From Dehalococcoidia bacterium (GTDB lineage Bacteria > Chloroflexota > Dehalococcoidia > SM23-28-2 > RBG-16-64-32): a stretch of DNA of 64,000 nucleotides. A program made the position numbers and the translations under genes. This document shows positions 2,330 to 54,942 of the stretch, piece by piece (the stretch's first letter is position 1; every line of letters starts with the position of its first letter). A model generated the notes under the pieces. The model had not been told where the DNA came from. It worked only from the letters and a program-made list of their open reading frames with translations, and did no database searches. The DNA lies in the NCBI GenBank assembly GCA_040882565.1, contig JBBEAZ010000024.1:105662-169661 (forward strand), in the 5' to 3' direction.

Positions 2330-2860
2330 GCACCAAGCGCATTCAATCGACGTTTCACAGCGTTCAATCGACGCTTTCGGCGGTCGTGTGTATCTGCGCT
2401 TTCGTTGTCCGGCGGGAACGGTTCGTCCGGGTCACAGTCATCGGGTTTCGTCGCCTGTCTCGACTCTGGGACTGTAGCCACCCTCATACCATACTTGCAA
2501 TTGTGGATATTCGTGACACTTTGAGAGCAATCACTTCGGACAGAGAATTGCGGAAGATGAGAGCGAAGAACTGAGCACGTATTTCGTTGAGACCGACCAA
2601 TGGCAGCGCATGTTCAAAGGTGAGGTCGGGTGCCGTTCTTGTACCGAGATGCGCTCGATATGGTTCAAGGAGCCGCCGAGTAGTGCGCGTGTCGGCTGTT
2701 ACAACGGTCAGAGCTGGTGATAATCGCTGACATTTTGACATCTGTGGCACGTAACCGCCCGACAGCCCATGGGAGCTGGCGGGAATGGCGAAGGATGAGA
2801 TTGACAGCACTCCTACAGCAGGTGCATTGTAGGGCCCACTAGGACCTAATGGGAGGACAC

Positions 2861-4027
2861 ATGTCATCTCTTACGCTGTTGGCGGGAACGAGCAATCAGG
2901 CCCAAAGTGAACGCTGTCCTTGGTGTGACAACCCGATAACCCACCGGCAGTTCGAGGAAATAAGAGCGAGAATAGCCTCCGAAGAGCGGAAGCGAGCGGC
3001 GGACGCGGCTGCCCAGTTAGAGGCGGAGCTCAACAGAGAGCGCGCGGAGGCCAAGAAGGTCGTGGAGTCAGAACGGGCCCGTCTAGCGAAGGAAGCCGAC
3101 GCCAGGGTGACCGCTGAGGTTAAGTCGGCCCGCGAAGAAGCGGCCGAGGCAAGCCGTCTCCAACTCGCCGAGATGGAGAAGGCGGCCATAGCCGCCGAGG
3201 CGCGCGTCGACGCTCTTGAAGCGGGCCAAGAAGATATGATTGCGGCCCGGCTCAAGGAGCAACGGACCGCCCTAGAGAAGGACAAGATTGACGCTTTGAA
3301 CGCCGAAAGGGCGCAGCGCTCAAAGGACGAGCTGAAGTTCAAAGAGAAGGTCGACCTCCTCCAACGTCAGCTCGAGAAGAAGACAGCGGAAGACCTAGGT
3401 GAGGGCGCAGAGGTCGACCTCTTCGAAACGCTGAGGGAGGCGTTCCCCGAGGACCTCATCACGCGAGTCGGGAAAGGTAAGGAAGGCGCCGACATTTTGC
3501 ACAGGGTCCGGGACTCTGGCGGCCACCAGTGCGGTTCAATCGTCTACGATTCCAAGAATCGCACGGCTTGGCGCAACGAATACGTAACAAAGCTTCGGAA
3601 GGATCAACTTGTAGCGAAAGCGGAGCACGCGATTCTCACATCTCTCGCGTTCCCAGCCGGCGCGAGGCAGCTTCACTTGCAGGATAGCGTGGTTGTATGC
3701 AATCCCGCGCGAGCTCGGGCAATCGTTGAATTGCTTCGCCGACATATCGTACAGACCCACACCATGCGGCTCAGCGCAGAGGCACGAGCCGAGAAGACTG
3801 CGCATCTGTACGATTTCGTAACATCAGATCAATGCGCTCAACTCCTAGAACAAATCGAGGCGCGTGCCGCAGACATTCTGACCCTTGACGTCACTGACAA
3901 GAAAGCGCACGAGTCGACCTGGAAGAAGCGTGGCGAAATGGTGCGCGCGATTGAGCGTGCTCACTTGGACCTTTCCACGGAGATTGATCGCATCATTGGT
4001 GGGCAATCGATTCGGCTCGTGAAATAG
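2861..4027 (+). CDS. zinc-ribbon / long coiled-coil protein with a C-terminal DUF2130-like region (possible PD-(D/E)xK nuclease fold)
   Basis: ATG 2861 follows GGGAGG. The N-terminus has a CPWC zinc ribbon. About 200 aa of E/K/A-rich coiled coil follow. The C-terminus has the conserved block GKGKEGADILHRV ... GSIVYDSKN ... W ... KLRKDQ, read by eye as a D / D-x-K catalytic-like arrangement. The DUF2130 assignment is from memory of the family architecture and was not searched. Confidence 0.75.
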   Translation: MSSLTLLAGTSNQAQSERCPWCDNPITHRQFEEIRARIASEERKRAADAAAQLEAELNRERAEAKKVVESERARLAKEADARVTAEVKSAREEAAEASRLQLAEMEKAAIAAEARVDALEAGQEDMIAARLKEQRTALEKDKIDALNAERAQRSKDELKFKEKVDLLQRQLEKKTAEDLGEGAEVDLFETLREAFPEDLITRVGKGKEGADILHRVRDSGGHQCGSIVYDSKNRTAWRNEYVTKLRKDQLVAKAEHAILTSLAFPAGARQLHLQDSVVVCNPARARAIVELLRRHIVQTHTMRLSAEARAEKTAHLYDFVTSDQCAQLLEQIEARAADILTLDVTDKKAHESTWKKRGEMVRAIERAHLDLSTEIDRIIGGQSIRLVK

Positions 4028-4028
4028 C

Positions 4029-4982
4029 ATGGGGGATCCGAAGGTGGTTCGCCTTGCTCCCAATCTAGACGCGTTGCAGGAACGTCGACTGGGTCGCACT
4101 GTACTTCGTACCTATCGGGCTACTCTGGACATCGACGACCTCATTCCCAACGAACGCCAACCTAGGCTAGGACCGAAGGAAGACGACGAACTACAGCGCC
4201 AAATTGAGGCCAATGAAGGAGTCTTCGAGCCCTTGCTGGTCGAACCTCACCCTGATGTGCCAGACAAATTCAGAATAATTGACGGCGAGCGACGTTGGAC
4301 GAACTCACTCGCGCTTGTGCACCAGGGGAAAGAACAGTATCGACAGCTGCCCGTCGAGATAACAGATAGAACACTCTCTGACGATGAACGATTGAGGGCG
4401 TGGATTTACATTCATCGCCAGCGCAAAGAATGGGACGCCAAAGAGAAAGAGATGGTGGCCTACAGACTCGTACAGTTAATGGGACGAGCCAGCGCCGCCA
4501 GTATATTGGGCATCACCGTTAGAGAACTGGATAAGCTGGTCGACATATTCGAGCTGTCTGAGCGGTTTGACAATCTGCGGGACCCGAGCGCAGCTATCAC
4601 CTGGGCACGTGAACTGAATGGCGTAAGCAAGAAGCTTCTAACCCCATCGATCGTTGATGCCGTCGTAGGCAAAGTCGGCGACAAGCGCATAACGAACTCT
4701 AAGGATATTCGCAAACTTCGTGTGATCCTTCGCGATCCAGTAGCCAAGGCGAACTTCCTGTCGGATGAGGGTGATATTGATTCCGCGTTGCTGCGAATTG
4801 CCCCGGACGAATCCAGTAAGGACGAACGTGACATCCTCACTCAGCTCGACTTCGCGATGGAGTCCATCCGACGTGCTCCGTGGACTACGCTTGAACAACA
4901 CCGAGGAGACGACCGCTTGATTCGACGCATCGATGAAGCCGAGGAGCTCCTTAGGGCGCTACGCGAGAAGTTGTCGAGGTAG
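4029..4982 (+). CDS. ParB/Srx (ParB N-terminal CTPase / nuclease-like) domain protein with a central HTH
   Basis: The start lies 1 nt after the upstream stop (TAG 4025-4027, ATG 4029), suggesting translational coupling. EPLLVEP ... FRIIDGERRWTNS matches the ParB box II GERRxRA arginine-finger motif. AASILGITVRELDKLV is HTH-like. The C-terminal 130 aa are helical and of unknown function. The gene has about 52 % GC. Confidence 0.8.
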   Translation: MGDPKVVRLAPNLDALQERRLGRTVLRTYRATLDIDDLIPNERQPRLGPKEDDELQRQIEANEGVFEPLLVEPHPDVPDKFRIIDGERRWTNSLALVHQGKEQYRQLPVEITDRTLSDDERLRAWIYIHRQRKEWDAKEKEMVAYRLVQLMGRASAASILGITVRELDKLVDIFELSERFDNLRDPSAAITWARELNGVSKKLLTPSIVDAVVGKVGDKRITNSKDIRKLRVILRDPVAKANFLSDEGDIDSALLRIAPDESSKDERDILTQLDFAMESIRRAPWTTLEQHRGDDRLIRRIDEAEELLRALREKLSR

Positions 4983-5054
4983 GGTCCCGCCGTTAGGAGC
5001 CGCCGGGCAATATGCGGCGCGTCAACTTACGCGAGCGTCAGCGTTTGAGAAAGA

Positions 5055-5225
5055 GACCGTCGAGGACGCCACGCAGGAGCTGTCGCATTGACAAGCCTTG
5101 GCGTCGAAGTTCCGGAGGGAGCGCGACTTGGCGGCCGCTGGTCCGCGAATCTTGCGGCCTGGTTGTCGCGGACTTAGAGTAGGGCGCGATGACGGGGAGA
5201 CCGGGGATTCCCCCTCGCGCAGAGG
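5055..5225 (+). repeat. copy A of an imperfect ~145-170 bp direct repeat (partner at 18186-18330)
   Basis: It aligns at about 85 % identity with 18186-18330. Shared blocks are GTCGCAT, AAGTTCCGGAGGGA, GCGACTT and GGTCCGCGAATCTTGCGGC..GTCGCGGACTTAG..GATGACGG. It has nested hairpins (GTCCGCGA/TCGCGGAC and CCGC-gaatctt-GCGG). Confidence 0.7.
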
Positions 5226-5390
5226 CTTCGGGCGCGAAGTCGAAAGGGGTATGTGGCACGGCCACGCCAGTGTCTCAGGACCCTCTCGGCGGCGAGGTGG
5301 TGGCAATGCGATGGGCTGGCTGTATCGCCCTCGGCCCAAGGGGGGTTACCTCGACCGGCTCATCCCCCGTTACCACTTGGACTGTCTGTC

Positions 5391-5756
5391 TTATGGAACG
5401 TCTTTCTTGGTTTGATTCAGCTTCTCCAATACCGCAGCGAGGGCGTCGATTGTTGCGTCGACGTCGAGAGCTCTGCGGCGGGCATTGTCGTGTATCCAAG
5501 CTAGAGCCTCGGACATTGGTTCACCCTCATCAACGCTGAATTCGTCAATCTGTACGCCCTGTTCGTTGGCGATGGACAAGGTATAGGTGGCACTAAAGGT
5601 AGATTTTAGATCACCGGTGATCCTGACCGAGGCAGGGCCAAAGTTGGCGTCGAAGATGCTATAGTCCGGTTTCGCAATTAGCGCGCGCCATTCTAGCTTG
5701 TCGCTGGCTTCAGCTAGATTCTTAACGATCGATTCGTATCTTGGTGGTATGGGCAT
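5391..5756 (-). CDS. hypothetical protein (121 aa)
   Basis: It is a clean ORF on the low-GC islet with no recognisable motifs (MPIPPRYESIVKNLAEASDKLEW...). Confidence 0.45.
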   Translation of the reverse strand: MPIPPRYESIVKNLAEASDKLEWRALIAKPDYSIFDANFGPASVRITGDLKSTFSATYTLSIANEQGVQIDEFSVDEGEPMSEALAWIHDNARRRALDVDATIDALAAVLEKLNQTKKDVP

Positions 5757-5766
5757 CCTATTTCCT

Positions 5767-6270
5767 TTACGCTTGGCGAGCGTCGAACTGCATTCTAGTC
5801 GATAGGGCGGTGAGAAAAGAAGAAAGTTGCGTTAGGGAGACATGCACGCTCGTCAGTTGTGAATCCTTGGGGTGCGACTCACCTAGTGTGGCCTTGAGTA
5901 GCAGTTTCTCCATATCCTCTACCTGCTCGATGTGCGAGTTGAATGTTTGGGTATCGTCTGCCGGGATGCCAGCTCCTGCGAGCTTTGCGAGGGCTTCCCT
6001 TAGATCGCTCATGCGACCGAGAGCGGCGCCATACTGCCGGTTTCGGACGTGCTCTTGGAGGTTAGTAATGATTCGAACAGCGTTAGTCAGGTCAGTCAGT
6101 TGAAGCTGGCGTGCGAGTTGTCGGGTTGTCGCGTAGACGGTTTCGGCTCTCTTTGCGACAGTATCGGCAGCACTGCGAATCTGCCAGACGGCAACTATCA
6201 GCGCGACGGCTGTCGCCCCTATCCCAGCCAATGCGATGATGTCACGCCAGCCGTCATTCAGAAATCCCAT
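5767..6270 (-). CDS. hypothetical membrane-anchored coiled-coil protein (about 167 aa)
   Basis: The start was moved to Met 6270 (MGFLNDGWRDIIALAGIGATAVALIVAVW, one TM helix). The upstream part of the listed ORF (to 6438) only translates the tRNA-like remnant (..GLEPPTPG..). Confidence 0.5.
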   Translation of the reverse strand: MGFLNDGWRDIIALAGIGATAVALIVAVWQIRSAADTVAKRAETVYATTRQLARQLQLTDLTNAVRIITNLQEHVRNRQYGAALGRMSDLREALAKLAGAGIPADDTQTFNSHIEQVEDMEKLLLKATLGESHPKDSQLTSVHVSLTQLSSFLTALSTRMQFDARQA

Positions 6271-6356
6271 TTCACCGTATGATAATGGTTTGTAGGCACC
6301 CGTGATCTTGGGCGCACAGCGCTCACAACCTGAGATACGGACGCACACCGCCAGCA

Positions 6357-6410
6357 GGATTAGGTTTCCTAAACCGGGTGTCGGCGGTTCGAGTCCGTCC
6401 CGGGGCACCA
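6357..6410 (+). pseudogene. tRNA-Arg(CCU)-like 3' fragment: anticodon arm to CCA, with no matching 5' half. Likely an att-site remnant
   Basis: TAGGT-TTCCTAA-ACCGG / GTGTC / GGCGG-TTCGAGT-CCGTC / CCGGGGC-A-CCA. It has a canonical T-arm and U33/A37 flanking the CCT anticodon. The required 5' acceptor strand GCCCCGG is absent upstream. Confidence 0.5.
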
Positions 6411-6618
6411 CAATTTCGTGCCTGTAGCGAAACCCCATCGACCTACGGTCGGCGCCGGTCCGGGCGAGCCCGCGACCCTCGGAGTGGAAGGAATATCTGC
6501 CCGCTATAAGTCAAGTTACGTTGATTGTGAGGTTGGTTTGGTCATACCCATTCGCGTTCATGACGTAGATCTCAGAGAGTTCGGGTCGGACTAGCGCGGC
6601 GCTTACAATACCCCTGAC

Positions 6619-7158
6619 TTGGCACCCATTACCTATCGCCCCTTTGTTCCCGCTGACCTCCCGCGCATCCGCGACATAGATCGCAGCGAGCGCATCGGCG
6701 TCCTCTATATCCAGCACGGAACACAGCCAGAGGAACGCCGCGGCGACTTCGACTCCCCCAACTGGCTCACGGAAGGCGACGGCGAGCACTCTCTTGCGGC
6801 CCAGCAAGCGCACGTCGAGGAGTTGCTGGCGTCAGGCGCTGTTGCCCTCGGCGCTTTCGATGGCGATCGCCTGGCTGGCATCGGCGTTCTTGTCCAGCAC
6901 CTGCGGCCCGGCGTCGCGCAGCTCGCCTACCTGCACGTGAGCAACGGCTATCGGGCCAGCGGCATCGGCCAGCGGCTGTCCGAGGACCTCGACCACATCG
7001 CCAGGGAAGGCGGCGACAGCGAGATCGTCGTCTCCGCTACGCCGTCACAGAACACCGTGCGTTTCTACACGGGCCGCGGCTACCAGCCGATGGCCGAGCC
7101 GCTCCCCGAACTCTTCGCGCTGGAGCCGGAGGACATCCACCTCCACAAGAAGCTGTAG
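6619..7158 (+). CDS. GNAT family N-acetyltransferase
   Basis: 179 aa, apparent TTG start. The acetyl-CoA motif region is GIGQRL .. VRFYTGRGY. Confidence 0.8.
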   Translation: MAPITYRPFVPADLPRIRDIDRSERIGVLYIQHGTQPEERRGDFDSPNWLTEGDGEHSLAAQQAHVEELLASGAVALGAFDGDRLAGIGVLVQHLRPGVAQLAYLHVSNGYRASGIGQRLSEDLDHIAREGGDSEIVVSATPSQNTVRFYTGRGYQPMAEPLPELFALEPEDIHLHKKL

Positions 7159-7258
7159 CCCGCCGAGGGCGGTATCATCGCAGCGATGAGACAACAAAAT
7201 GACCCTATTCTTCCGAGAAGTAGGGCCGTAAGCGAGGCAAGGCCCCGGCGAACGACGG

Positions 7259-7576
7259 TTAACGGGCTGTGATGGGCTCCACGCTGCCGTCGGCCGCGAT
7301 GCGCGACGCCAGGATGACCGTCGCCCCGAAGAGATCGCCGTCTTCTTCGATCGGTTCGCCGGCGTTGAGGCCGACGCGGACGTTCAGCGGCTCGCCCTCG
7401 CGGTCGGCAAAGGCGCGTTGGAGCCCGTTGGCGTCGCCTCCTCGGAGCCGTTGACAGTCGCCGGATCCCCCGCCAACGGACGAACCCCCAGGGCTGACGG
7501 CCGCGCTCCACCCACCGGCTGACGGTGCGCCGGTCGATCCCCAGCCTCCGTGCTGCTTCTGAAGCGTTCCCGCCAC
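7259..7576 (-). pseudogene. possible remnant of a class III adenylyl/guanylyl cyclase (C-terminal ~45 aa of the cyclase homology domain only)
   Basis: VRVGLNAGEPIEEDGDLFGATVILASRIAA resembles the C-terminal cyclase motif (IRIGIHTGEVV..GD.FG..VN.AARL). The N-terminal two-thirds of the domain are missing. Confidence 0.3.
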
Positions 7577-7752
7577 ACTCTCTTCAGGTTTCGATGATTT
7601 CTCGTATCTCTGTTCGCTGCATCCGTCATTCTAAGCACCTGTGCCATAAGTCGTGAGAGAACAAGAGTTAGTTGACTAATTCTGCGGCCACTCCTATACT
7701 TAACCCACTTCGGAAAAGGATCGAGGCTCGCGGGCCGGGGGAGGGGTTTAAG

Positions 7753-9480
7753 ATGCTCAGGTCGATTTCGCTCGGCGTTCTTGCCGTAGTACTTGTCGTT
7801 GTCGCCGCCTACTTGGACGGCGCCGGGGACAGAAGCGAGGCCGCTCCCGATCCTGACGTTATTCCGGGCCGCTACATTGTCACGCTGACGCCCGGTATCG
7901 CCGCTCATGCCTTCGCTCAAGAGACGGGTTCCCGGCTCGGTTTTCGAGCGGACGTCGTGTATTCCCACGCTCTCAACGGGTTTGCGGCCAACCTGCCAGC
8001 TCAGGCGGCGCAAGCCCTTGCCCGCGATTCCGGGGTTCTCTCCATCGAACCAGACCGCATCGCCCGCGTCACCGATCAGATTCTGCCAACGGGCATCGAC
8101 CGCATCGACGTAGACGAAAATAGCACTGCGGGAATCGCCGGCGACGGTGGTGCTATGGACGTTGATATCGCCATCATCGACACAGGCATCGACGTCGATC
8201 ACCCGGACCTGAACGTGGTTGGTGGCGCTCGATTCTCCGGGTCGGGGTTCGCCATCTTCTGGACTTGCGACAATGGCAGCGGCTCGTTTGACGACGATAA
8301 TGCGCACGGCACCCACGTCGCCGGCACCGCGGCTGCCAGGGACAACTCCGTGGGAGTAGTGGGAGTGGCGCCCGGCGCCCGCCTGCACGCGGTCAAGGTG
8401 CTGACATCGGGGGGCACAGGTGCCTACTCGTGCATCATTATGGGGATCGACTGGGTGACCGCGCGAGCCGACACGATCGATGTCGCGAACATGAGCCTCG
8501 GCGGCGGCAGCAGCAGCGCCCTCTGCAACGCCATCCAGAACTCGGTCAACGCCGGAGTCGTCTATGCCGTCGCCGCGGGCAATGAGATCGTAGACGCTGA
8601 AACCCGCAGCCCCGCGAACTGCGCCCCTGTGGTGACGGTGTCAGCTATCGCCGACTTTGACGGAAAGCCGGGAGGTCTGCAGGACGAGACGATCGCGTTC
8701 TCATCCTGCACGGAGACCGAAGACGACTCGTTTGCCTGTTTCAGTAACTTCGGTTCGACCATCGAGGTGGCGGCGCCGGGAGTGAAGATCCTGTCCACGC
8801 TCCCGGGCGGCGGCACCGGGACCGGCTCAGGTACAAGCATGGCCAGTCCCCATGTGGCAGGGGCGATCGCCCTGTACAAGGTCGCGAACCCCGCTTACAA
8901 CACCAGTCATGGTCCCACCGTCATCGCCGACATGACCGCGGACGGCTGGACGGTCCCGCAGGACAGCCCCTGTGGCTTTGACGGTGACCCGGACAGCTAC
9001 CCTGAGCCGCTGATCTACGGCGGCTCAAGCTGCCTCGGTGGCGCGACACCCACGCCCTCGCCGACTCCATCGCCCACGCCGACACCCACGGCGTCACCCG
9101 AGCCCACGCCGACGCCAACACCTACCGCGTCACCGGCACCCACACCAACACCGACGCCGGCGCCGGACGGAACGATGCACGTGGCAAGCCTCAGCGGCAT
9201 AAGCATCAGCCAGGGTTCAACCTGGGTCGCGCAGGTAACGATAACGGTCCACGATTCAGCCAACAACCCGGTGGCCGATGCAACTGTTTTCGGATCCTGG
9301 AGCCTGGGCTCGCCGTCCTCCGGCAACTGCACGACGAACGGCGCCGGGCAATGTACGCTCACTAGCGGCAGCATCCCTAAACGGAATTCGTCCGTCACGT
9401 TTACCGTCACAAACGTCACGTACACGACACTCGTCTACGATCCGAGTGGAACAACTTCAATAACCATCGCCAAGCCGTAG
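7753..9480 (+). CDS. secreted S8 subtilisin-like serine protease with I9 propeptide, Pro/Thr linker and C-terminal beta domain
   Basis: The start was chosen at ATG 7753 after GGGGAGGGG, followed by a signal peptide. The catalytic triad motifs are DTGIDVDHPDL, HGTHVAGT and GTSMASPHVAG. The linker is TPTPSPTPSPTPTPTASPEPTPTP. Confidence 0.9.
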   Translation: MLRSISLGVLAVVLVVVAAYLDGAGDRSEAAPDPDVIPGRYIVTLTPGIAAHAFAQETGSRLGFRADVVYSHALNGFAANLPAQAAQALARDSGVLSIEPDRIARVTDQILPTGIDRIDVDENSTAGIAGDGGAMDVDIAIIDTGIDVDHPDLNVVGGARFSGSGFAIFWTCDNGSGSFDDDNAHGTHVAGTAAARDNSVGVVGVAPGARLHAVKVLTSGGTGAYSCIIMGIDWVTARADTIDVANMSLGGGSSSALCNAIQNSVNAGVVYAVAAGNEIVDAETRSPANCAPVVTVSAIADFDGKPGGLQDETIAFSSCTETEDDSFACFSNFGSTIEVAAPGVKILSTLPGGGTGTGSGTSMASPHVAGAIALYKVANPAYNTSHGPTVIADMTADGWTVPQDSPCGFDGDPDSYPEPLIYGGSSCLGGATPTPSPTPSPTPTPTASPEPTPTPTPTASPAPTPTPTPAPDGTMHVASLSGISISQGSTWVAQVTITVHDSANNPVADATVFGSWSLGSPSSGNCTTNGAGQCTLTSGSIPKRNSSVTFTVTNVTYTTLVYDPSGTTSITIAKP

Positions 9481-10317
9481 ACAGCGGGACTTGGATTCGG
9501 GGCGGACTTCGGTCAGGGGCTTGGGGTGCTTCAGCCGAAATCGTATCTGGAGCGGGAGAGGGGCTCGCCCTACAGGTCCCGCCGCGGCGGAAACCCGCGA
9601 CCCTCTGCTTGGAAGGCTCGGACCTGGAAAAAGCGCCGAAAATGAGGATTTCAGATACGAAATTGCGACCAAGATGCCACACTCAGCGGGGTGGTAGCAG
9701 CGGTGTGCCCCTACCGAGGAGACTCACGCTATTTCGTTGTATTTGTCCTCCATTTCGTTCGAATTCGCAGGTGGATTCTAACATGCGCTAAAAGGACCCT
9801 TGCGCCAATCATGGCATCACGAACAGCCCGGCGCGTCCCGACTCCACCTGCGATTCATCTTGCGTCCGGGCTAGGCCGACCGTGCTAGCGCGACAAGCCC
9901 GCTGAGCGATTTGCACCGATCCTCGAAGAGTTCGCTAGTGGACGTTCGTGCGATCCCGCGCGCCGAGAGTTTCGCTTGAAGGTAACATCCGCCAATACAC
10001 CGGTGCCAACGGTTCCGGCGTGCAGTTGTTGATCACCGACCAGCTTCGTTGGGCTGGTCGTGATGTTCGTGGTAGAGAGCGCGAACTGCACGATGCTCGA
10101 CCCGTCCATGGCCTGGAAGTAGCAGCCAATCGCGGGGAGAGGTGGTACAGGGGCCCGTCGTGGCGCCGGTCAGAGGGCCGGCCCGCTGCCAGTTAGAATA
10201 CTTCGCGCAACACAAAGCAAGTAGGCCACAAGCAATGGTTGTAGCAGGCCAGCCGTTCCGGCTCGATCGCGGCTCAGTGCGACCGGTAGAAGGCTGCCCC
10301 CCGCTCCCCCACCATGT

Positions 10318-11388
10318 CTACTTCTCCAGCAAGAACAGTTGATGGTAGGGATGCTCGACGGGAAGCTTCTCGAAGTGAGAGAAGCCGGCCTCCCGCGCCA
10401 GCTCCCGGGCTGTTCCCTCCCCCACTACGTTGCCCAGCCCCTCGCCACCGTGGGCTAGCGAGACTGTCATGCAGTGCATAACGCTGGTGGCGTAGAGGAG
10501 TCGCCCCATGGGGTTGATGTTGTCCTCAAGGCGGTCGGACGCGTTGGCCTCCGACCACAGGAAGGCGCCGTCGGGTTTGAGGGCCCGGCAGACGCCGGCC
10601 AGGGCACCGCGCGGGTTGGCCATGTCGTGGATGCAGTTGAAGGCGATGATGAGATCGAAGTGGCCCTTGTGGGGGATATCCTCCGCCGCCGTGAACTCGA
10701 ACGATACCCGTTCGCCGAGGTCGGCATTGGCGGCGTGTCGCCGTGCCCGGCGGATAGACTCCTCATCGATGTCATAGCCAACAAAGCGTGAGTTGAGGTA
10801 GGCCTTGGCGAAGGGGATGAGGGCCTGACCGGCGCCGCAGCCGACTTCCGCGACGTCCGCCCCGGCCTTGACCCTCTCGAACACCTCTCCAAGGGCCGGG
10901 AGCCACTGGGTCGCCACCGCGCTCTCGTAGCCGGGCGCGAAGAGGCGTTGGATGGCCTCGACGATCTCGGGTCCAAACTCGGCAAAGGCGATGCCGCCAC
11001 CGTTCTTGAAAGCTTCCATCAGTCTCGGCAGTTGCCGGACGCACGCTTGGGCGTAGAGGAAACCACCGCCCATGAAGCGGGGACTATCATCGTCTGCCAG
11101 CACCGCCACCTGTTCAGGACTGAGCCGGAAGGTGTGATCCCGAGGATTGTAGTCGATATATTCCGATGCGGCCATGGCGGCGGCCCACTCGCGTATGTAG
11201 CGCTCGTTCAGGCCGGTGCGGTCCGCCAGGTCCTGCGAGGTCATTGGCACGCCGTCAGCCAGCGCCCGGAAGATGCCCAGCCGGTCGCCGATGTAGGCGA
11301 GCGCGATGATGTGGGCGCCGCCCCAGTCCTGGAGCACGCGGGTGGCAAACTGGGCGACCTTGCCAGGATCTGCGGATCGCTGTGACAC
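10318..11388 (-). CDS. class I SAM-dependent O-methyltransferase with an N-terminal dimerisation (wHTH) domain
   Basis: EVGCGAGQALIPFA is the SAM motif. The N-terminal helix is VLQDWGGAHIIALAYIGDRLGIF. The start was set at GTG 11388 to avoid a 130-nt overlap with the upstream gene. The listed 11541 start adds a low-complexity leader. Confidence 0.8.
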   Translation of the reverse strand: MSQRSADPGKVAQFATRVLQDWGGAHIIALAYIGDRLGIFRALADGVPMTSQDLADRTGLNERYIREWAAAMAASEYIDYNPRDHTFRLSPEQVAVLADDDSPRFMGGGFLYAQACVRQLPRLMEAFKNGGGIAFAEFGPEIVEAIQRLFAPGYESAVATQWLPALGEVFERVKAGADVAEVGCGAGQALIPFAKAYLNSRFVGYDIDEESIRRARRHAANADLGERVSFEFTAAEDIPHKGHFDLIIAFNCIHDMANPRGALAGVCRALKPDGAFLWSEANASDRLEDNINPMGRLLYATSVMHCMTVSLAHGGEGLGNVVGEGTARELAREAGFSHFEKLPVEHPYHQLFLLEK

Positions 11389-11410
11389 GGGACCGTTATG
11401 CCAGGCGGCC

Positions 11411-12562
11411 TTAGCGGGGCGTCCCGGCAGTCGCTGGCTGGCGCTCGATCCTGTCCGCGAAGTAGGGCATGACCAGGCGCCCGAAGCGCTCCGCCTCCTC
11501 GTCGTGGGGATAGCCGGAGAGGCAGAACTCCGTGCAGCCAAGGTCGATGAATTCCTGGATGGTCTCGGCTACCTGCTCCGGGTTGCCCACGATGGCGACG
11601 CCGGCGCCTGGCCGCACAGTGGCGACGCCGCTCCAGAGGTGCTTGCCAATCCGGAGGTCTTCAGTCTGCGCCAGCTCCTTCATCCTAGTGTTCGCCTGCG
11701 ACTCCCTCCACATATTTTGAACGACGTCCTTTAGCAATTGAGGCGCACCGGCGATGAGGGCGTCGGCGTCCCGCCACGCCTTTTCCTCCGTCTCGCGGAC
11801 CAGCACCTGGAGTCGCATGCCGAAAGCGAGGTCGTCCCCGCGGCCGTACTTTGCGGCAACGCGCTTCACTTCGGCGACCTCTTCGGCGATCCGCTCGGGA
11901 GTGTCGCCCCAGAAGAGGTAGACGTCGGCGTGCCTGGCGCCGACCTCTCTGGCGGCGGGCGAGATACCGCCGATGTAGAAGCGCGGATGGGGCTTCTGGT
12001 AGGGACGGGGCTGGACGACGGCGTTCTCCACCTGGTAGTACTTGCCTTTGTGGGTCACGGGCCCGTCTTCAGTCCAGAGCCGCTTCATCAGCGTCACCGT
12101 CTCGTCCATGACTTCGTAGCGCTCGTCGTGTTCGTAGAAGAGGCCTTCGGCGGCCTGCTCGGCGCCGCCGGGCCCGGCGATGAGGTTGATACAGACGCGC
12201 CCCTGGGTGAGCTGGTCGAAGGTGGTGAACATCTTGGCCATGAGCGTGGGCAGCATGTAGCCGGCGCGCACCGCCACCAGCGGCTTCAGGCGCTCCGTGC
12301 GGGCCGCGACCATGGCGCAGGCGATCCAGGCCTCGTAGCACATGGTCTGGACGGGAACGAGGGCGTACTCGAAGCCGGCGCTCTCGGCCGCCTGCGCGAC
12401 CTTTGTGAAGTGGTCCAGGCTGGGCGGGATGTTTGCGGCGCCATCGCCGAACGCCCTCGTGTCACCAGCGGTCGGGATGAACCAGCCGAAGCGAAGGCGG
12501 CCGTTGTCCTTTGTTCCCGTGTCGTCTACCGATGGGTGAACCATAGCTCCACGTTCAGCCAT
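11411..12562 (-). CDS. LLM-class flavin-dependent monooxygenase (luciferase-like; SsuD/alkanesulfonate-monooxygenase-like)
   Basis: The start was set at Met 12562 (MAERGAMVHPS), 13 nt after the tauD stop. The TIM-barrel LLM signature regions are FGWFIPTAGD and GGAEQAAE. The upstream 70 aa of the listed ORF are Arg/Ser low-complexity. Confidence 0.85.
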   Translation of the reverse strand: MAERGAMVHPSVDDTGTKDNGRLRFGWFIPTAGDTRAFGDGAANIPPSLDHFTKVAQAAESAGFEYALVPVQTMCYEAWIACAMVAARTERLKPLVAVRAGYMLPTLMAKMFTTFDQLTQGRVCINLIAGPGGAEQAAEGLFYEHDERYEVMDETVTLMKRLWTEDGPVTHKGKYYQVENAVVQPRPYQKPHPRFYIGGISPAAREVGARHADVYLFWGDTPERIAEEVAEVKRVAAKYGRGDDLAFGMRLQVLVRETEEKAWRDADALIAGAPQLLKDVVQNMWRESQANTRMKELAQTEDLRIGKHLWSGVATVRPGAGVAIVGNPEQVAETIQEFIDLGCTEFCLSGYPHDEEAERFGRLVMPYFADRIERQPATAGTPR

Positions 12563-12575
12563 AAGAGCTGACCGG

Positions 12576-13406
12576 TCAGCCGGCCAGGTAGGGGCGCTCG
12601 CCCACGGTGGTGACGCGGTAGCCGGTGCGAGTCTCGGGGAAGTAGTCCCAACTGGCGTAATGCTGGACGCAGCGGTTGTCCCATAGCGCCACAGAGTTCT
12701 CCTCCCAGCGGAAGCGCACCTGGCACTCGACCTCGTACGCGACGTGGTCAAACAGCATCTTGAGGATCGCGTCACTCTCCCGTCTGGTGACGCCTTTGAT
12801 GCGGGTGGTGAACCCGGAATTTATGTATAGCGCCCGCCGACCGGTCAACGGGTGGGTGCGCACCGCGGGATGAATGGCCGAGGGGGTCTTCGTGTCGTTC
12901 ATGCTATAGCGTCCGCCGTACACCTGATCCGAGGTGTGGATAGCCTGGCGGGCAGAGAGGAATTCCTTCATCGGGTCTGAGAGCAGGTCGTAGGCGGCGT
13001 ACATGCTGGACCAGAGCGTGTCGCCGCCGACCGAAGGGATAACCTCGACTCGCAGCATAGACAGCGCTGGTGGTTGCTCCTCGCAAGAGACATCGGTGTG
13101 CCAGGTTTCCCCCGCCGTGTACTTTGAGTCGGCGTCGGTGTGAACCAGCAGCACCTCAGGGTAGCCCTCTGGGCCCTTCGCTGCCGGGTGTACGTGCAGG
13201 GTACCCAAGCGCCGGCCAAGTTCCACCTGCTGATCCAGCGTCATCGCCTGATCACGGAAGAATAGTACGCCCCGTTCGGCTGCCAACTGCCTGATCTCCT
13301 CGATAGCCGCGTCGTCCAGATCGAGCAGGCGCAAGCCTCGCAGTTCGGTGCCGATGTGGTGGTTATAGTCAATGCGTTCAACACGAGTCAGGATGCCCGT
13401 CGTCAT
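12576..13406 (-). CDS. tauD: TauD/TfdA-family Fe(II)/2-oxoglutarate-dependent dioxygenase (taurine dioxygenase-like)
   Basis: Start ATG 13406 is preceded by AAGGAGG. It has the HTDVS (HxD) motif and WDNRCVQH. Confidence 0.85.
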   Translation of the reverse strand: MTTGILTRVERIDYNHHIGTELRGLRLLDLDDAAIEEIRQLAAERGVLFFRDQAMTLDQQVELGRRLGTLHVHPAAKGPEGYPEVLLVHTDADSKYTAGETWHTDVSCEEQPPALSMLRVEVIPSVGGDTLWSSMYAAYDLLSDPMKEFLSARQAIHTSDQVYGGRYSMNDTKTPSAIHPAVRTHPLTGRRALYINSGFTTRIKGVTRRESDAILKMLFDHVAYEVECQVRFRWEENSVALWDNRCVQHYASWDYFPETRTGYRVTTVGERPYLAG

Positions 13407-13923
13407 TTCAACCTCCTTAGGGAAACTCCGCGATGCGGACGGTATCACACAGGTGCGCAGGTGTCCAGCGAATGTACTCGTTCGGTACATATCCCACAGT
13501 CTTTGCCCTCCGGCGCCGGACTCGAGAAGTACGACTCTATGCGAGACAATCCTCCGCTGTTCCGACATGGCCCAGAGATCGCTTGGCAGCGGGGCCGCTG
13601 GCGGGCCGTAGGCCTTCAAGTCCGCACGCGTCCAAGACGCCAAACCAAACGCCCTGGGCGAGTCGATGCGGGCCGATATACGGGCTTGCGTTGGGGGAGC
13701 GGATTGAGTTTTGGTTAAGGGCTAGACACCACTGGCGAAGAGCATCTGTTTCGTAGGTGGCACCGGCCGGCTGGCCGTCTCGGCTGGGTAACGCTTCCGA
13801 AGGGTTAACGTCTACCTCTACATGCAAGCATCAACGGGTTATTCTCCGCGGGTCAGGCCACCAGCGTTCCATGGGCGCAACCAGCACGACCCGATATTCC
13901 AGCTGAAGGGCAATCTTTAACTA

Positions 13924-16900
13924 GTGCAGTCACGCGTTCAGCATCGCTCCGAGGCTGGCATCGACGAAGCCGCTACCGACAAGGTATTCGCGGCCGAGAC
14001 CGATATCACCTTCGTGCGCCTGGCGGTCATCGCGTTTAGCACCGTCGTTTATGTCTTCCTCTTCGACAAATCCGGTTCCATCCAGTGGCTTGCGTACGGC
14101 ACACTCGCCATCGCCTGGATCTACGGAGTGTCGGTGCTGGCGCTTCAGCCGCATCGGCGCCACCCGGCGCTGTTGTCGAGCTACTTCACATCGACATCCG
14201 ACGCAGCCCTGATCACAGCCTGGATCATCGCCACCGGCGGATACGATTCACCCTTTTACGTTCTGTGGTATGTATCGATCGTCGCAATTGCTTACCGATA
14301 CACCCCAAGGGAGACGATGATCGTCTCGTGTCTGTACGCGGCTTCGTATCTCGCTCTCGTGGCTGCCTTAGGTGAGACCTCTGACCGCACCACCGACTTG
14401 GTCGTTCGCATTGGCTATATCTTCCTCGTCGGTGCGATGAGTTCGTTGCTCTCGCGGGAGGCCCTTGGTCAGTCAAGGGCGAGAGTGGAGGCGCGCCGGG
14501 CGGCAGAGCTTGCGGCCGCCGCAGAAGCGCGGTTTCGCGAGCTCCTCGAATCGGCACCGGACCCGGTCATCATCGTGAACGAGCAGGGGTCTGTGGCTCT
14601 GGTCAACGCGGAGGCGGAGAGGGCCTTCGGCTACTCGAAAGAGGATATCCTGGGCGGCGGCGTGTTGATGCTCATACGCCAAACAGACCACGAGCGGGCG
14701 AGAGCCGAGTGGAGTGCATACACATCTGGGGTGCCAAGGCCGCAGACCATTGGTGGGATAGATCTCGTGGCGAGGCGAAAGGATGGAAGCGAGTTTGTGG
14801 TCGACGTCCGGCTGAGCCCGCTCAAAACCGAAGAGGGGATACTTTTCACGATCGTGATGCGCGACATCAGCGAGCGAAAGCGGGCCGAGGAGGCGCTCCA
14901 CGAAAGCGAGGCTCGCTTCCGTGCCCTCACCGAGAACGCTTCTGACTTTATCTTGATCCTTGACCCCCACGGCGTTCTTCAATACACGAGCCCATCCGTG
15001 GGCAGAATGCTAGGTTATGGCGAAGACGAGTTGTTAGGGAAAAATGGGTTCGAATTCGTACACCCAGATGACGCCTCAGAACTGGCGCAAATCCTCGCGA
15101 TGAGACTCCAGACGCGGGGGATCGGGGAGCCGATCGAATTTCGTGTTCTGCACAGCAACGGAGCCTGGCGCCTGTTCGAGGCGATCGGCAACTTCGACCT
15201 GCTGGACGACCCTGCGGTCGGCGGAATCGTCCTCAACGCCAGGGACATTACGGAGCGCCGACGGGCGGAGGAGGCATTGCGGGACTCCGAGACTCAGTAC
15301 CGTACCTTGGTGGAGGGCGCCAGCGACCACATTTTGATCCTTCAAAATGGGAAGACGGTATATCGAAACCCCGCATATGAAAGGCTGATCGGCTACAGCT
15401 CTACCGAAACAGCTGGCCGCAGCTTCCTGGAGTTCGTCGCCCCCGAGGACCGCGCCATAGTGGAAGAAAAATACCGGAAGCGGCTCCGGGGGGAACCCGC
15501 AACAGAGCAATATGAAGTGCACATCATGACCAGGGATGGCGGCAGGGCGCTTATGGAGGTTAAACCACGGGTCATCCAGTACCACGGTGAGCCAGCCACA
15601 ATGGTGCTGATGCGCGACATCACCGAGCGGAGGCAGGCCGAGGAGACGATCAGACGCCTCGCGCATCATGACGCGCTGACCGGCCTGCCGAACCGCATGC
15701 TCTTCGAGGACCGCCTCAACGTGGCTCTGGCCCAGGCGCGACGCAGCAAGGAGATGCTGGCCGTGCTGTTCCTGGACCTCGACCGTTTCAAGCTAGTGAA
15801 CGACACGATCGGCCACGCCGGAGGAGACGAACTGCTGCGGCAAGTCGCCGCGGACCTCGAAGAGGTAGTGCGCGACGGGGACACGGTAGCACGCAACGGC
15901 GGCGACGAGTTCACGTTGCTGCTTCCACGCATCCACTCCAAGCAAGATGCGATAGAAATCGCAGAGCGCATTCTGCGGGTCCTGGGCGAGCCCAAGTGTC
16001 TGCGTGGCCAGGAATTCACGGTCACGACGAGCATCGGCATCAGCATGTATCCCAAGGACGGCAGGACTGAGCAGGAACTGATGGCGAACGCGGACACCGC
16101 GATGTACCGGGTCAAGGAGCGGGGGCGCAACAACTACCAGCTGTACACGCCAGCGATGAAGGCAGACGTTCTTGGCCGGCTCGCTCTTGAGAGAGACCTT
16201 AGACGTGCTCTGGAGCATGAGGAATTCGTGTTGCATTACCAGCCGATCCTTGACGTGGGGACCGGCGAAATCGTCGCCGCGGAAGCACTCCTCCGCTGGC
16301 GGCACCCGACCCGCGGGCTGGTTTACCCGAACGATTTCATTCCGTTCGCCGAGGAGCACCGGCTCCTGGCCGAAATCGAAGAATGGGTCCTGTCCGAAGC
16401 GTGCAGGCAGAGGCGGCATTGGCGGCAGGAAGGATATCCCGAAGTCCGCATGAGCGTGAACCTATCGGCGCAGCAACTGCAGCGGAAGGAGTTGCCCGCC
16501 CTGGTGTCGCGGATACTGAAGCAATCCGGACTCGCCGGGGTGCACTTGCAGATTGAAATTACGGAAGGTGCGATGCTGGACAATGCCGACCCTGTCATCA
16601 GGACCCTCCGGCACCTGCGAGGGATGGGCGTGCGAATCTCAGTCGACGACTTCGGGACGGGATACTCGTCGCTCAGCTACCTTAAGAGATTTCCGATCGA
16701 CGAGGTGAAGATCGATAGGTCCTTCGTGAGAGACCTGACGGTGGATCCGAAAGACGCCACAATCGTCTCCACTATCATCACGATGGCCCACGACCTCGAA
16801 CTCGACGTCGTTGGCGAGGGGGTCGAATCAGAAGACCAGCTCCGCTTCCTCAAAGATCGCGGCTGTGACGCATGTCAGGGCTATCTGTTCAGTAAACCTG

Positions 16901-17001
16901 TGCCGGCAGCGGAGTTTGAACAGTTGCTCCGCGAGAGCATCGCGACAGTCGTCGGTGCACTCGGGGCAGGGGCCGGACGAAATAGCAGCCGCAACTCATA
17001 A
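13924..17001 (+). CDS. membrane sensor PAS(x4)-GGDEF-EAL c-di-GMP turnover protein
   Basis: 1025 aa. The N-terminus is multi-TM. Four PAS blocks follow. The GGDEF motif is RNGGDEFTLLL. The EAL domain has EALLRWRHP and DDFGTGYSSLSYLKRFPIDEVKID. Confidence 0.9.
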   Translation: MQSRVQHRSEAGIDEAATDKVFAAETDITFVRLAVIAFSTVVYVFLFDKSGSIQWLAYGTLAIAWIYGVSVLALQPHRRHPALLSSYFTSTSDAALITAWIIATGGYDSPFYVLWYVSIVAIAYRYTPRETMIVSCLYAASYLALVAALGETSDRTTDLVVRIGYIFLVGAMSSLLSREALGQSRARVEARRAAELAAAAEARFRELLESAPDPVIIVNEQGSVALVNAEAERAFGYSKEDILGGGVLMLIRQTDHERARAEWSAYTSGVPRPQTIGGIDLVARRKDGSEFVVDVRLSPLKTEEGILFTIVMRDISERKRAEEALHESEARFRALTENASDFILILDPHGVLQYTSPSVGRMLGYGEDELLGKNGFEFVHPDDASELAQILAMRLQTRGIGEPIEFRVLHSNGAWRLFEAIGNFDLLDDPAVGGIVLNARDITERRRAEEALRDSETQYRTLVEGASDHILILQNGKTVYRNPAYERLIGYSSTETAGRSFLEFVAPEDRAIVEEKYRKRLRGEPATEQYEVHIMTRDGGRALMEVKPRVIQYHGEPATMVLMRDITERRQAEETIRRLAHHDALTGLPNRMLFEDRLNVALAQARRSKEMLAVLFLDLDRFKLVNDTIGHAGGDELLRQVAADLEEVVRDGDTVARNGGDEFTLLLPRIHSKQDAIEIAERILRVLGEPKCLRGQEFTVTTSIGISMYPKDGRTEQELMANADTAMYRVKERGRNNYQLYTPAMKADVLGRLALERDLRRALEHEEFVLHYQPILDVGTGEIVAAEALLRWRHPTRGLVYPNDFIPFAEEHRLLAEIEEWVLSEACRQRRHWRQEGYPEVRMSVNLSAQQLQRKELPALVSRILKQSGLAGVHLQIEITEGAMLDNADPVIRTLRHLRGMGVRISVDDFGTGYSSLSYLKRFPIDEVKIDRSFVRDLTVDPKDATIVSTIITMAHDLELDVVGEGVESEDQLRFLKDRGCDACQGYLFSKPVPAAEFEQLLRESIATVVGALGAGAGRNSSRNS

Positions 17002-17271
17002 GAAGTTGGTTTGTTCTCGGCTCTGTCCGGTCGGCGCGCGGTTTCTCCCGGTTTGAAATACAGCTTCTACGCCAACGCGATCCCGACAGATTGGACGTGC
17101 AGTACGATGGCCGCAGCGCCGCGGAGGCGGGCGTCCCCAACCAGAGCGGATGTGAGACGCAAACTTCCTCCGGCGCTTCTGTTTGTCTAACTGTCTTCTT
17201 CTCAGAGCCAGCGAGCGGTGGGTCCGCCGGCCACCCGCTATACTTTTGGGCCAGCGCTCTGATTCCAGGAG

Positions 17272-17769
17272 GTGCTCTTGCCAGACAAACTTACCTCAGC
17301 GCAAGTTGAACGCTTCCTGCGGGGCCGCCACATAGCTGTGCTCACTACCGTCAACCCCAACGGCGCGCCGCTTCAGACCCCCGTCTGGTATCTCTACCGC
17401 GACGGGCTCATTTACATTCGCACCAACTCTCTAAGTGCCAAGGTGCGCAATGTTCGGCGCGATCCCCGAGTCAGCCTCTGCGTCCAGGATGAGCGGCCAC
17501 CGTACCGCGGCGTAACAGTCACAGGTGTCGTCGCAAGGATTGAGCCAGACCGGCGAGAGATATCGACGGTGATGTCTCGGAATTACCTCGGCATGGTCGC
17601 GGGCTTCTTCTATTTGCGACTTCGCACTCGCAACGAGATCGAGGACGATCCTGACATGATGCTAGTGATCAAAGCGCAGCGAAAACACGGCTGGGACTAT
17701 CGCCCACGCACTCCCCTGGTCGGCCGCGTCTGGCTGGCCTTCAAGCGCGTGCTGCCGCCTTGGCTGTAA
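17272..17769 (+). CDS. pyridoxamine 5'-phosphate oxidase family protein (likely PPOX-class F420-dependent)
   Basis: GTG start after CCAGGAGG. HIAVLTTVNPNGAPLQTPVWY is the PNPOx-like split-barrel signature. Confidence 0.8.
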   Translation: MLLPDKLTSAQVERFLRGRHIAVLTTVNPNGAPLQTPVWYLYRDGLIYIRTNSLSAKVRNVRRDPRVSLCVQDERPPYRGVTVTGVVARIEPDRREISTVMSRNYLGMVAGFFYLRLRTRNEIEDDPDMMLVIKAQRKHGWDYRPRTPLVGRVWLAFKRVLPPWL

Positions 17770-17775
17770 CGCGAC

Positions 17776-17940
17776 GGATTGGAAGAGGCGAAGGACGTCG
17801 TTGTACCACTTGATCGTCTTTACCGACTTGCCCTCGGTCTGGTTGTGGAACTCCCAGTACTCTTTCAGTTCGTCAAGCGTGAGCTTGTTCACTGTCTTCC
17901 TCCACTTGAGAGCGGAGTTGCGCTTCTCTAGCTTCAGCAT
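17776..17940 (-). pseudogene. tyrosine recombinase (phage integrase) N-terminal SAM-like domain fragment, truncated after about 55 aa
   Basis: MLKLEKRNSALKWRKTVNKLTLDELKEYWEFHNQTEGKSVKTIKWYNDVLRLF matches the integrase N-terminal pattern LT..EL.E.WLE.....G.S..TI..Y...L. The frame then runs into the antisense of the PNPOx gene. GC is lower here (about 52 %). Confidence 0.55.
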
Positions 17941-18122
17941 TTCCGGCGTGCCTCCTACGAGTCAAACTTGAGTGAGATCGAGATGAGATGCGGGTGATGC
18001 TTGCGTGATCTCGACTCGGCCAGGCACGCTCTGCAAAAGAGAGGGTGGCAGCGGTTCACCAGACGACTAAACGGGTCACCCCGTTTGCGCCAAACCGCGA
18101 ATTCGTATCTGAAAATGGGGTT

Positions 18123-18198
18123 TGGCGCCCCCGGAAGGACTCGAACCTGCAACCCGCTGCTTAGAAGGCAGATGGTCTTTCGGTCATTAACGCGTCGC
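18123..18198 (-). pseudogene. tRNA-Arg(UCU)-like sequence: the 3' two-thirds are canonical, the 5' part is degenerate. Pseudo-tRNA / att remnant
   Basis: Minus-strand reading: TCTGC-CTTCTAA-GCAGC / GGGTT / GCAGG-TTCGAGT-CCTTC / CGGGGGC-G-CCA. The 5' 26 nt (GCGACGCGTTAATGACC..) cannot form an acceptor or D-arm. Confidence 0.55.
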
Positions 18199-18330
18199 AT
18201 CAACCGGCCTTAGCGCCAAGTTCCGGAGGGACGCGACTTAGCTGCCGCGGGTCCGCGAATCTTGCGGCTTCGCTGTCGCGGACTTAGTGAGGGGCGCCAT
18301 GACGGGACGAGACCGGTGATTCCGCTACAG
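18186..18330 (+). repeat. copy B of the imperfect ~145 bp direct repeat (partner at 5055-5225)
   Basis: See copy A. Its left end overlaps the degenerate 5' part of the pseudo-tRNA. Confidence 0.7.
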
Positions 18331-18434: not shown

Positions 18435-19049
18435 CTATTTCTTTGCGGGCTGATACTTGATGTGCGTGACGGTGTCGGAAGCGACCACGCGGGCGGGCTT
18501 CAGTTCGATCGTCTTACCCATGCCGTTGAACAGCGGCCGTCCTCCACCGAGCAGCACGGGAGCGATGTGCACCTGCAGTTCGTCGAGGAGGCCCAGCGTC
18601 AGCAGTTGCTGGATGATGCTCGCGCCGCCGGCCACTGAGATGTGCTGGTTGCCGGCAGCCCCCTCCGCCTGCTTGAGCGCCTCTTCGATCGAGCTGACGA
18701 AGTGGAAGGTCGTGCCGCCCTCCTTCAGGAGTGGCTCTCGCGGGCGGTGAGTAACGACGAATACGTCGTTGTGGAACGGCGGGTTAATGCCCCACGGCTC
18801 CTCGGCGAAGTCGAACATCCGGCGGCCCATGATCGTCGCACCAACTCCCTCAATCGACTCCGCCATTACGTCCGAGTCGGGGCCTTCCTTGCCGCCCGTC
18901 ATGCCGTGCGGCTCGCGCCAGGCCTTGAGCCCGTACACCCACTGGTGCAGGCGCTCGCCGCCGTCCCCCAACCCGTTGTCCGGACTGTCGTTCGGGCCGG
19001 CGATGAACCCGTCCAGGGACATCGAGATGTCTGCTCTTAGCTTACCCAT
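18435..19049 (-). CDS. dihydrofolate reductase family protein (RibD C-terminal domain-like, YwjB/YyaP type)
   Basis: 204 aa. SMSLDGFIAG ... VAGGASIIQQLL..GLLDELQVHIAPVLLGGGRPLF. Confidence 0.8.
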   Translation of the reverse strand: MGKLRADISMSLDGFIAGPNDSPDNGLGDGGERLHQWVYGLKAWREPHGMTGGKEGPDSDVMAESIEGVGATIMGRRMFDFAEEPWGINPPFHNDVFVVTHRPREPLLKEGGTTFHFVSSIEEALKQAEGAAGNQHISVAGGASIIQQLLTLGLLDELQVHIAPVLLGGGRPLFNGMGKTIELKPARVVASDTVTHIKYQPAKK

Positions 19050-19059
19050 GGCTTACCCA

Positions 19060-19353
19060 TCACTTTCCATCCTTCCCCGGCTGGTACGTGAGTAGCACCA
19101 CGCCGGTCTTGTACGTCTTCGAGTCGACGAGACGCAGCTTCGGGATTGTGGCGTCATCGCGGAACAGGCGCAGGCCACTGCCAAGCACGATCGGGAACAC
19201 CATCAGGTCGTACTCGTCGACCAGGTCGTGCTTCACCAGCGTCTGGACCAGGTCACCGCTGCCGTACACGAGGATGTTGCCGAGGTCCTGCTTCTTGAGG
19301 TCGGCCATGCGGGCGAACCCGTCGATGATCACGAGGCGTGATATCTCGTCCAA
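19060..19353 (-). pseudogene. C-terminal half of a second RibD_C/DHFR-family gene (N-terminal half missing)
   Basis: LVYGSGDLVQTLVKHDLVDEYDLMVFPIVLGSGLRLF corresponds only to the C-terminal ~95 aa of the fold. Confidence 0.5.
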
Positions 19354-54474: not shown

Positions 54475-54480
<6 letters not shown>

Positions 54481-54942
54481 TTCGTGTTCTTCGCTCGCGT
54501 AGTACGGCTCATGTCCATCGGAAATGCCGTTCCGGTTCCAGTCCGGTTGCTGCTTCGCCTTGTTGCGCAGTGCTTTGATGAGGCCCGAGAGAGTCGCAGC
54601 TGCCTCAGACCGAATGGGCTCAATCGCTGCGATGTCCGCCTCGGTCAGGATCTCTACATCCAGCATGAATTCGAGCAGATACTCCACCTCACTGATCGAA
54701 GTGCTCGCAGTTTCCAGGAAACGCAGGAAATCTCGAGTCGTACCACGCCCGTGACCTTCTACGATGTTCAGAGGAGCGGAAACTGCCGCTCTCGACAGCT
54801 GACTGGCCAACCAACCATCGGTTTTGGCGACCTTTTTACTGAGCGCGTAGGCTCTTTTCGCCAGGAGGTCTGCCTTGCGAAATGCGATGACCCGCCGGTA
54901 GCCCTTGCTACTTGCTCCTTGCTCCTTGCTCCTCGTCGTCAT
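54475..54942 (-). CDS. four-helix-bundle protein (TIGR02436 / 23S-rRNA-intervening-sequence-type protein) inserted between atpD and atpG
   Basis: IAFRKADLLAKRAYALSKKV ... LASQLSRAAVSAPLNIVEGHGRGTTRDFLRFLETASTSISEVEYLLEFMLD matches the remembered family pattern (..FP..E.Y.L.SQLRRAA.SI..NIAEG..R....DF..FL.IA.GS..E....L). Confidence 0.75.
54902..54932. repeat. TTGCTCC-rich tandem/inverted repeat at the 5' end of the four-helix-bundle gene
   Basis: CCCTTGCTACTTGCTCCTTGCTCCTTGCTCC. Its reverse complement, GGAGCAAGGAGCAAGGAGCAAGTAGCAAGGG, pairs with AGTAGCAAGGAGCC at 54411-54424. Confidence 0.65.

Follow-up and report, generated by a model that had tools for sequence, protein, structure and literature searches.

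The window analysed here, by which we mean the whole stretch of 64,000 nucleotides from a Dehalococcoidia MAG, contains a non-coding module of 130 bp twice, copy A inside a low-GC islet and copy B between a RibD_C-family gene and a tRNA remnant that is followed by the stump of an integrase gene (Table 1). Both copies are in the same orientation, with a start-to-start distance of 13,112 bp. By blastn as well as by Smith-Waterman they are covered by a single alignment of 132 columns with 111 identities (84.1%), and the pair has an E-value of 3e-34 when blastn is run against the 64-kb window. The differences amount to 17 substitutions, which are evenly spread and divided about equally into transitions (8) and transversions (9), and three indels of 1, 1 and 2 nt. 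The edges are sharp: the 99-bp flanks on the left and the 111-179-bp flanks on the right align no better than shuffled sequence. A preliminary description of this DNA had reported an imperfect direct repeat pair with about 85% identity over about 140 nt and a separation of 13.1 kb, and the alignment bears this out. The sites that it gave are also right, but its limits (5055-5225 and 18186-18330) are slightly wide, the flanks beyond the edges found here being unrelated.

Table 1. Coordinates of the two repeat copies and of the features around them in the 64-kb window.
Feature	Position	Strand	Remarks	Evidence
Low-GC (52-60%) foreign islet	2400..6412	.	holds copy A; ends at the tRNA-Arg(CCU) remnant	composition, Pfam
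Repeat copy A	5082..5211	.	130 bp, non-coding	blastn, Smith-Waterman, nhmmer
8-bp inverted repeat GTCCGCGA/TCGCGGAC	5141..5173 (copy A); 18251..18283 (copy B)	.	17-nt loop	
tRNA-Arg(CCU) 3'-half remnant	6350..6412	+	second att-type relic	search with the UCU remnant; same architecture
Tyrosine integrase gene 5' stump	17778..17940	-	about 55 codons	translation; L019 comparison
Spacer, tRNA remnant to integrase start	17941..18122	-	int-proximal arm of att region	about 95% conserved in L019
tRNA-Arg(UCU) 3'-half remnant	18123..18183	-	att-type relic	Rfam tRNA partial match, 14.7 bits, relaxed threshold
Repeat copy B	18194..18323	.	130 bp, non-coding, 84% identical to copy A	blastn, Smith-Waterman, nhmmer
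RibD_C-family (dihydrofolate-reductase-like) gene	18435..19049	-	last gene syntenic with relatives before the break	Pfam

On searching for further copies with a profile built from A and B (nhmmer --max, filters off), no third copy was found in the window and the 8.8 kb past its right end, nor in any other locus retrieved. The copy count that had been proposed earlier thus stands at two for the 64 kb and the adjoining 8.8 kb. Viral contigs, species-representative genomes and JGI metagenomes were scanned for the longest block common to both copies, the 19-mer GGTCCGCGAATCTTGCGGC. The only matches were chance ones in coding DNA, namely in a phage repeat protein, an ABC ATPase and the C-terminus of a LacI-type protein, and two further blocks scanned exactly in the viral contigs gave no match. 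These genome and metagenome scans used exact patterns, one 19-mer each, and as two sequences of 130 nt that are 84% identical would be expected to share a run of about 19 nt by chance, they are weak tests. A distant blastn search of the repeat against plasmids and phages was also without a match. The contigs of k-mer assemblies from the same population run unbroken through both copies. The Logan contigs break instead at 6407, inside the tRNA-Arg(CCU) remnant, and at 18117-18148, inside the region of the tRNA-Arg(UCU) remnant, from which it follows that the community holds other, near-identical copies of the tRNA 3' ends, but none of the repeat.

These counts bear on the possibility that the module is a non-autonomous mobile or dispersed repeat of the MITE, PATE or REP-like kind, inserted independently at two sites. 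It does resemble such repeats in being short, non-coding and hairpin-containing (its internal inverted repeats are GC rich), in its sharp edges between unrelated flanks and in its intergenic position between convergent genes. It differs from them in that only two copies are seen in these 73 kb, no transposase is associated, no terminal inverted repeats are present (the best TIR alignment score is 5-7) and no target-site duplication exists, the k-mers shared by the flanks being only 5-mers at non-equivalent positions. The unbroken assemblies and the chance nature of the exact-block matches also speak against it, and the divergence of 16% argues against recent activity. We therefore regard independent insertion at two sites as distinctly unlikely.

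The module is not a coding remnant. Of the six frames, all are interrupted by stops in copy B and most in copy A. The indels do not preserve the frame, and A and B differ without third-position bias or codon periodicity. When six-frame pieces around copy A were compared with the copy B region by tblastn, the only match was the repeat itself. The sole match in representative proteins for an ORF spanning copy A (P0124) is due to chance: this protein consists of a 51-aa unit repeated seven times in tandem, the repetition inflates its E-value, and one unit scores only 26 bits.

Within the module the most regular element is the 8-bp inverted repeat GTCCGCGA/TCGCGGAC, which is identical in both copies (arms at 5141-5148 and 5166-5173 in copy A, and at 18251-18258 and 18276-18283 in copy B). 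A perfect 8-bp stem is, however, also found in 7-8% of the shuffles of the same 130 nt (p of about 0.07, not significant). The preliminary description had seen nested hairpins here. The stem is indeed present in both copies, but the second hairpin, CCGC-GAATCTT-GCGG, re-uses bases of the 5' arm of this stem and is therefore a mutually exclusive alternative fold rather than a nested one. Both copies do lie 3' of minus-strand genes as had been described, copy A 180 nt past the stop of a 121-aa ORF (5391-5756) and copy B 112 nt past the stop of the RibD_C gene.

This position had been described together with the suggestion of a structured ncRNA or 3'UTR element family. A small structured element transcribed downstream of minus-strand genes would agree with the position and with the conserved GC-rich stem, as it would with the few substitutions that fall in pairs predicted by RNAalifold, which are one-sided and compatible. 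Yet the two genes upstream are unrelated, the one an orphan and the other of the RibD_C family. The repeat is similar in size and in its GC-rich stems to the small and cis-regulatory RNAs of Rfam 15; it differs from them in that no family matches it, either at the gathering threshold with the whole window as query or at E<=10 with both local regions, where nothing overlaps the two copies. The covariance-model search that had been proposed for the repeat has thus come out empty. The MFE z-scores against dinucleotide shuffles are -0.37 and +0.99 for the plus strands of A and B and +0.13 and -0.62 for the minus strands, so there is no thermodynamic support, and RNAalifold gave no compensatory pairs on either strand, a comparison that has little power with two sequences. 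We also redistributed the transitions and transversions, in unchanged numbers, over randomly chosen columns and looked at the consensus folding energies; the random placement was at least as good in 20-50% of the runs (p = 0.21-0.51), the exception being one of the four set-ups, with 0.04. No promoter-like or terminator-like site, including a GC-rich hairpin followed by a U tract, was found within either copy on either strand. The RNA interpretation is accordingly improbable, and an annotation of the repeat as an RNA gene should not be made; the same applies to an annotation as an att site, for reasons given below.

To the right of copy B lies the RibD_C gene, which together with a partial paralogue is syntenic with two relatives, L018 and L023 (aa identities of 69% and 72%). 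Both of these have a DUF1428 gene 13-18 bp downstream of RibD_C, and the window has no DUF1428 gene, so the synteny breaks exactly at the site occupied by copy B together with the tRNA half and the stump of the integrase. As for the partial paralogue, a 97-aa RibD_C ORF (19060-19353, minus strand) lies directly upstream of the 204-aa RibD_C gene; it matches, with 83% identity in aa, the C-terminal part of a second RibD_C paralogue of L023 and is therefore probably a truncated paralogue.

To the left of copy B, and separated from it by 10 bp, is the tRNA-Arg(UCU) remnant, which consists of the anticodon arm, the T arm and the 3' strand of the acceptor with CCA; a tRNA 5' half is lacking. ARAGORN called neither this half nor the second tRNA-Arg half described below. 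The remnant is followed by a spacer of 183 bp and then by the 5' end of an integrase gene whose translation (MLKLEKRNSALKWRKTVNKLTLDELKEYWEFHNQTEGKSVKTIKWYNDVLRLFQS) was not recognised by the HMM libraries. Its identity comes from L019, a 910-bp contig of an unrelated sample (SRR8556377), which is about 95% identical to the window from 18150 down to about 17778, that is over the T arm, the spacer and the first 55 codons. Beyond about 17778, and after one frameshift, L019 continues into Phage_integrase (3.8e-13) and SAM-like domains; the frameshift in L019 may be real or a contig error. At the same position the window switches to the flank of a PNPOx gene, the stump being cut 9 bp from the end of that gene. 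As L019 reads on as an integrase where the window diverges, the integrase of the window is truncated, and the truncation would therefore be younger than the split between the window and L019. The T stem of L019 pairs perfectly (GAAGG/CCTTC), whereas that of the window has a mismatch, which fits a non-functional tRNA remnant. On searching viral contigs, we found no relatives of the integrase or of the ParB protein of the islet.

Taken in order, the repeat, 10 bp, the tRNA-Arg(UCU) 3' half, the 183-bp spacer and the integrase 5' end make up a sliver of about 650 bp that is wedged between the native RibD_C gene and the unrelated PNPOx gene. In tandem or decayed tRNA islands an attP-like order is seen, namely the distal arm, the tRNA 3' fragment and the integrase. 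This is the order of the sliver, which has the layout of an attP region or of a tandem-element junction. The likeness to junctions of tRNA-integrated islands extends to the non-tRNA DNA before the tRNA 3' half, to the spacer of about 180 bp, to the integrase, which reads away from the tRNA, and to the start of the tRNA half at the anticodon stem; for some tyrosine-integrase elements the crossover lies in the region of the tRNA gene that encodes the anticodon loop. It differs from such islands in that only a 55-codon stump is left of the integrase and no intact tRNA partner exists within the 64 kb. Both the pseudo-tRNA and the integrase fragment that had been reported beside copy B are thus real, the former through the partial Rfam match and the latter through its continuation in L019, and the mobile-element origin that they had suggested for the repeat is upheld by the same arrangement.

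Copy A lies in the low-GC islet, which carries a DUF2130 gene (2849-4027, plus strand), a ParB_N gene (4029-4982, plus strand) and two orphan ORFs on the minus strand (5391-5756 and 5767-6438) that encode 121 and 223 aa without a recognisable family; for the 121-aa ORF no homologues were found in the protein database. The copy begins 99 bp after the stop of the ParB_N gene. Plasmids of Alphaproteobacteria (Aminobacter pMET2, Skermanella and Rhizobium ruizarguesonis p4) carry two adjacent genes to which the DUF2130-ParB pair is 55% and 74% identical in aa, and for ParB the match reaches 72.6% at the nucleotide level over 720 bp. It looks like an inter-phylum transfer of a two-gene module of unassigned role. 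On the plasmids, the pair sits near ParB-N, helicase-related or N-6 DNA methylase genes. The repeat is absent downstream of the pair on these plasmids by the two-copy profile.

The right edge of the islet is formed by a second tRNA-Arg 3' half, with a CCU anticodon, which has the same architecture as the UCU half and forms an inverted pair with it (6369-6410 and 18123-18164, 42 nt, 76% complementary). Copy A is shown to lie in a horizontally acquired low-GC islet with a tRNA-Arg(CCU) 3' half as its right edge. A second, paralogous remnant, alike in architecture, bounds foreign DNA as in tRNA-integrated islands. The difference is that the module is not beside this second remnant and is inverted relative to it: copy A lies 1.14 kb from the CCU half, in the opposite relative orientation to that of copy B and the UCU half. 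Next to copy A neither a tRNA fragment, a tRNA-like core nor an integrase was found by Rfam and by alignment of the flanks.

We considered whether the two copies could themselves be old direct repeats of the att type with a 13-kb mobile block between them (5212-18193), a reading that the preliminary description had also offered. The copies are direct and they do enclose 13 kb with an integrase stump. In tRNA-targeting elements, however, att repeats are copies of the 3' part of the tRNA, and the repeat has no similarity to tRNA (Rfam, E<=10) or other core-like content. The tRNA-like sequences of this region are the two remnants in Table 1, which are inverted to each other and lie inside the supposed bracket. 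The enclosed DNA is heterogeneous in GC and origin and comprises orphan genes of low GC, ordinary genes of metabolism, one tRNA remnant and the integrase stump; the 13-kb block is therefore a mosaic rather than one island. The sequence of the window recurs, 100% identical, in three NCBI MAG contigs and in several Logan contigs. Among the contigs that bear the flanks, none runs from the DNA left of A directly into the DNA right of B, a weak test as all of them are identical to the window. The contigs of the closest relatives (L018, L023 and L019) are short and none spans either repeat copy. On these grounds we consider an att-type bracket very improbable, and this part of the earlier interpretation is not supported.

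A few observations concern the DNA between the tRNA halves. These halves bracket 11.7 kb with genes for GNAT, an S8 protease, a methyltransferase, a luciferase-like monooxygenase, TauD, PAS-GGDEF-EAL and PNPOx, and the integrase stump. The C-terminal part of the S8 protease ORF (7672-9480) contains a short imperfect tandem repeat (9044-9127, plus strand) of four overlapping copies with units of 12-18 nt. Independent assemblies also end at about 7136-7352, just past the GNAT gene (the NCBI contig JBBDPA010000022.1 at about 7136 and the Logan contig SRR27977662_116375 at about 7350), which suggests a further repeat or a strain-variable junction at this point.

When an element integrates into a tRNA gene near its 3' end, element DNA is what comes to lie 5' of the displaced tRNA 3' half. 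The CCU remnant obeys this rule, as it has the foreign low-GC islet 5' of it. If the rule is applied to the UCU remnant, copy B is element DNA. The DNA to the right of copy B, from RibD_C onward, looks native, so that the element-derived part on this side is at most 250 bp. This shows that integrative elements directed at two tRNA-Arg genes have left scars at about 2.4-6.4 kb and about 17.8-18.4 kb, and the repeat is very probably debris of such elements, with no evidence of a present function.

Our preferred reading is that the two copies are diverged relics of a homologous non-coding backbone from related tRNA-Arg-targeting tyrosine-integrase elements, to which we give a probability of about 0.5. 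The module would once have been situated in the integrase-distal terminal region of such elements, where it may have provided an arm for the recombination complex. Most of both elements would then have been lost by deletion and rearrangement, and the copies would since have drifted neutrally to 84% identity, with no demonstrable function at present. What counts against this reading is that the position relative to the tRNA remnant is not the same, copy B being at 10 bp and copy A at 1.14 kb and inverted. No intact element carrying the module was found among the loci retrieved, and its membership in an element is judged from context. Between the repeat and the 183-bp integrase-proximal spacer there is no excess of shared 7-9-mers over shuffles, and hence no arm-type repeats of the kind expected in tRNA-integrated islands were detected; this is a weak test that would miss degenerate motifs. 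A search of the literature for tRNA-Arg islands in Dehalococcoidia returned nothing specific. We also rejected a model of tandem islands in which an intact tRNA-Arg would lie on the right of copy B, as there is no tRNA or integrase from 18 to 64 kb. This part of the window, and in particular that from 30 to 64 kb, is core chromosome, with genes for MreB, a MurA-like protein and the ATP synthase.

Two other readings were considered. The repeat could have been left by an old segmental duplication that had nothing to do with mobile elements and have evolved neutrally since, with the tRNA and integrase debris close by through coincidence. The substitution pattern looks neutral, only two copies exist by nhmmer in the 64 kb and the 8.8 kb adjoining, and no function was detected by folding, by the substitution simulation or by the shared-motif test, all of which would agree with such a leftover. 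Against this, the copies coincide with the only two att-type tRNA-Arg scars of the window and with its foreign DNA, the remaining core of about 45 kb having neither, and the flanks are unrelated on both sides, which would call for several extra rearrangements. A duplication of this kind is for these reasons unlikely. The identity of 84% could also have been kept by selection rather than by recency, in which case the module would be a functional cis element of an undescribed Dehalococcoidia family of tRNA-Arg-targeting integrative elements. It might then act in recombination, as a directionality site or an arm site, or represent a small RNA encoded by the element. We hold this to be a doubtful proposition, and the relic of an element backbone remains the reading that we adopt.

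The repeat finding matters little alone and its main use is in annotation. Should further copies be found to terminate intact elements, the module could be of help in mapping the limits of genomic islands in the poorly studied MAGs of Dehalococcoidia, and if the reading as a cis element is true it would be a marker for finding such elements.

Some features away from the repeat may also be recorded. The contig L022 (1-5000), at about 4-9 kb past the window on its right side, encodes Cas7, Cas4, Cas1 and Cas2, a CRISPR-Cas module for adaptation and effector functions; the Cas genes are followed by about 2.5 kb without called genes, presumably a CRISPR array, and then by Fic and ETF genes. Within the window, two small unrelated genes on the minus strand (54475-54942 and 57375-57866) break up the F-type ATP synthase operon. 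A DinB_2/MDMPI_N gene is situated between the genes of the delta and alpha subunits, and a 23S_rRNA_IVP (four-helix-bundle) gene between those of the gamma and beta subunits.
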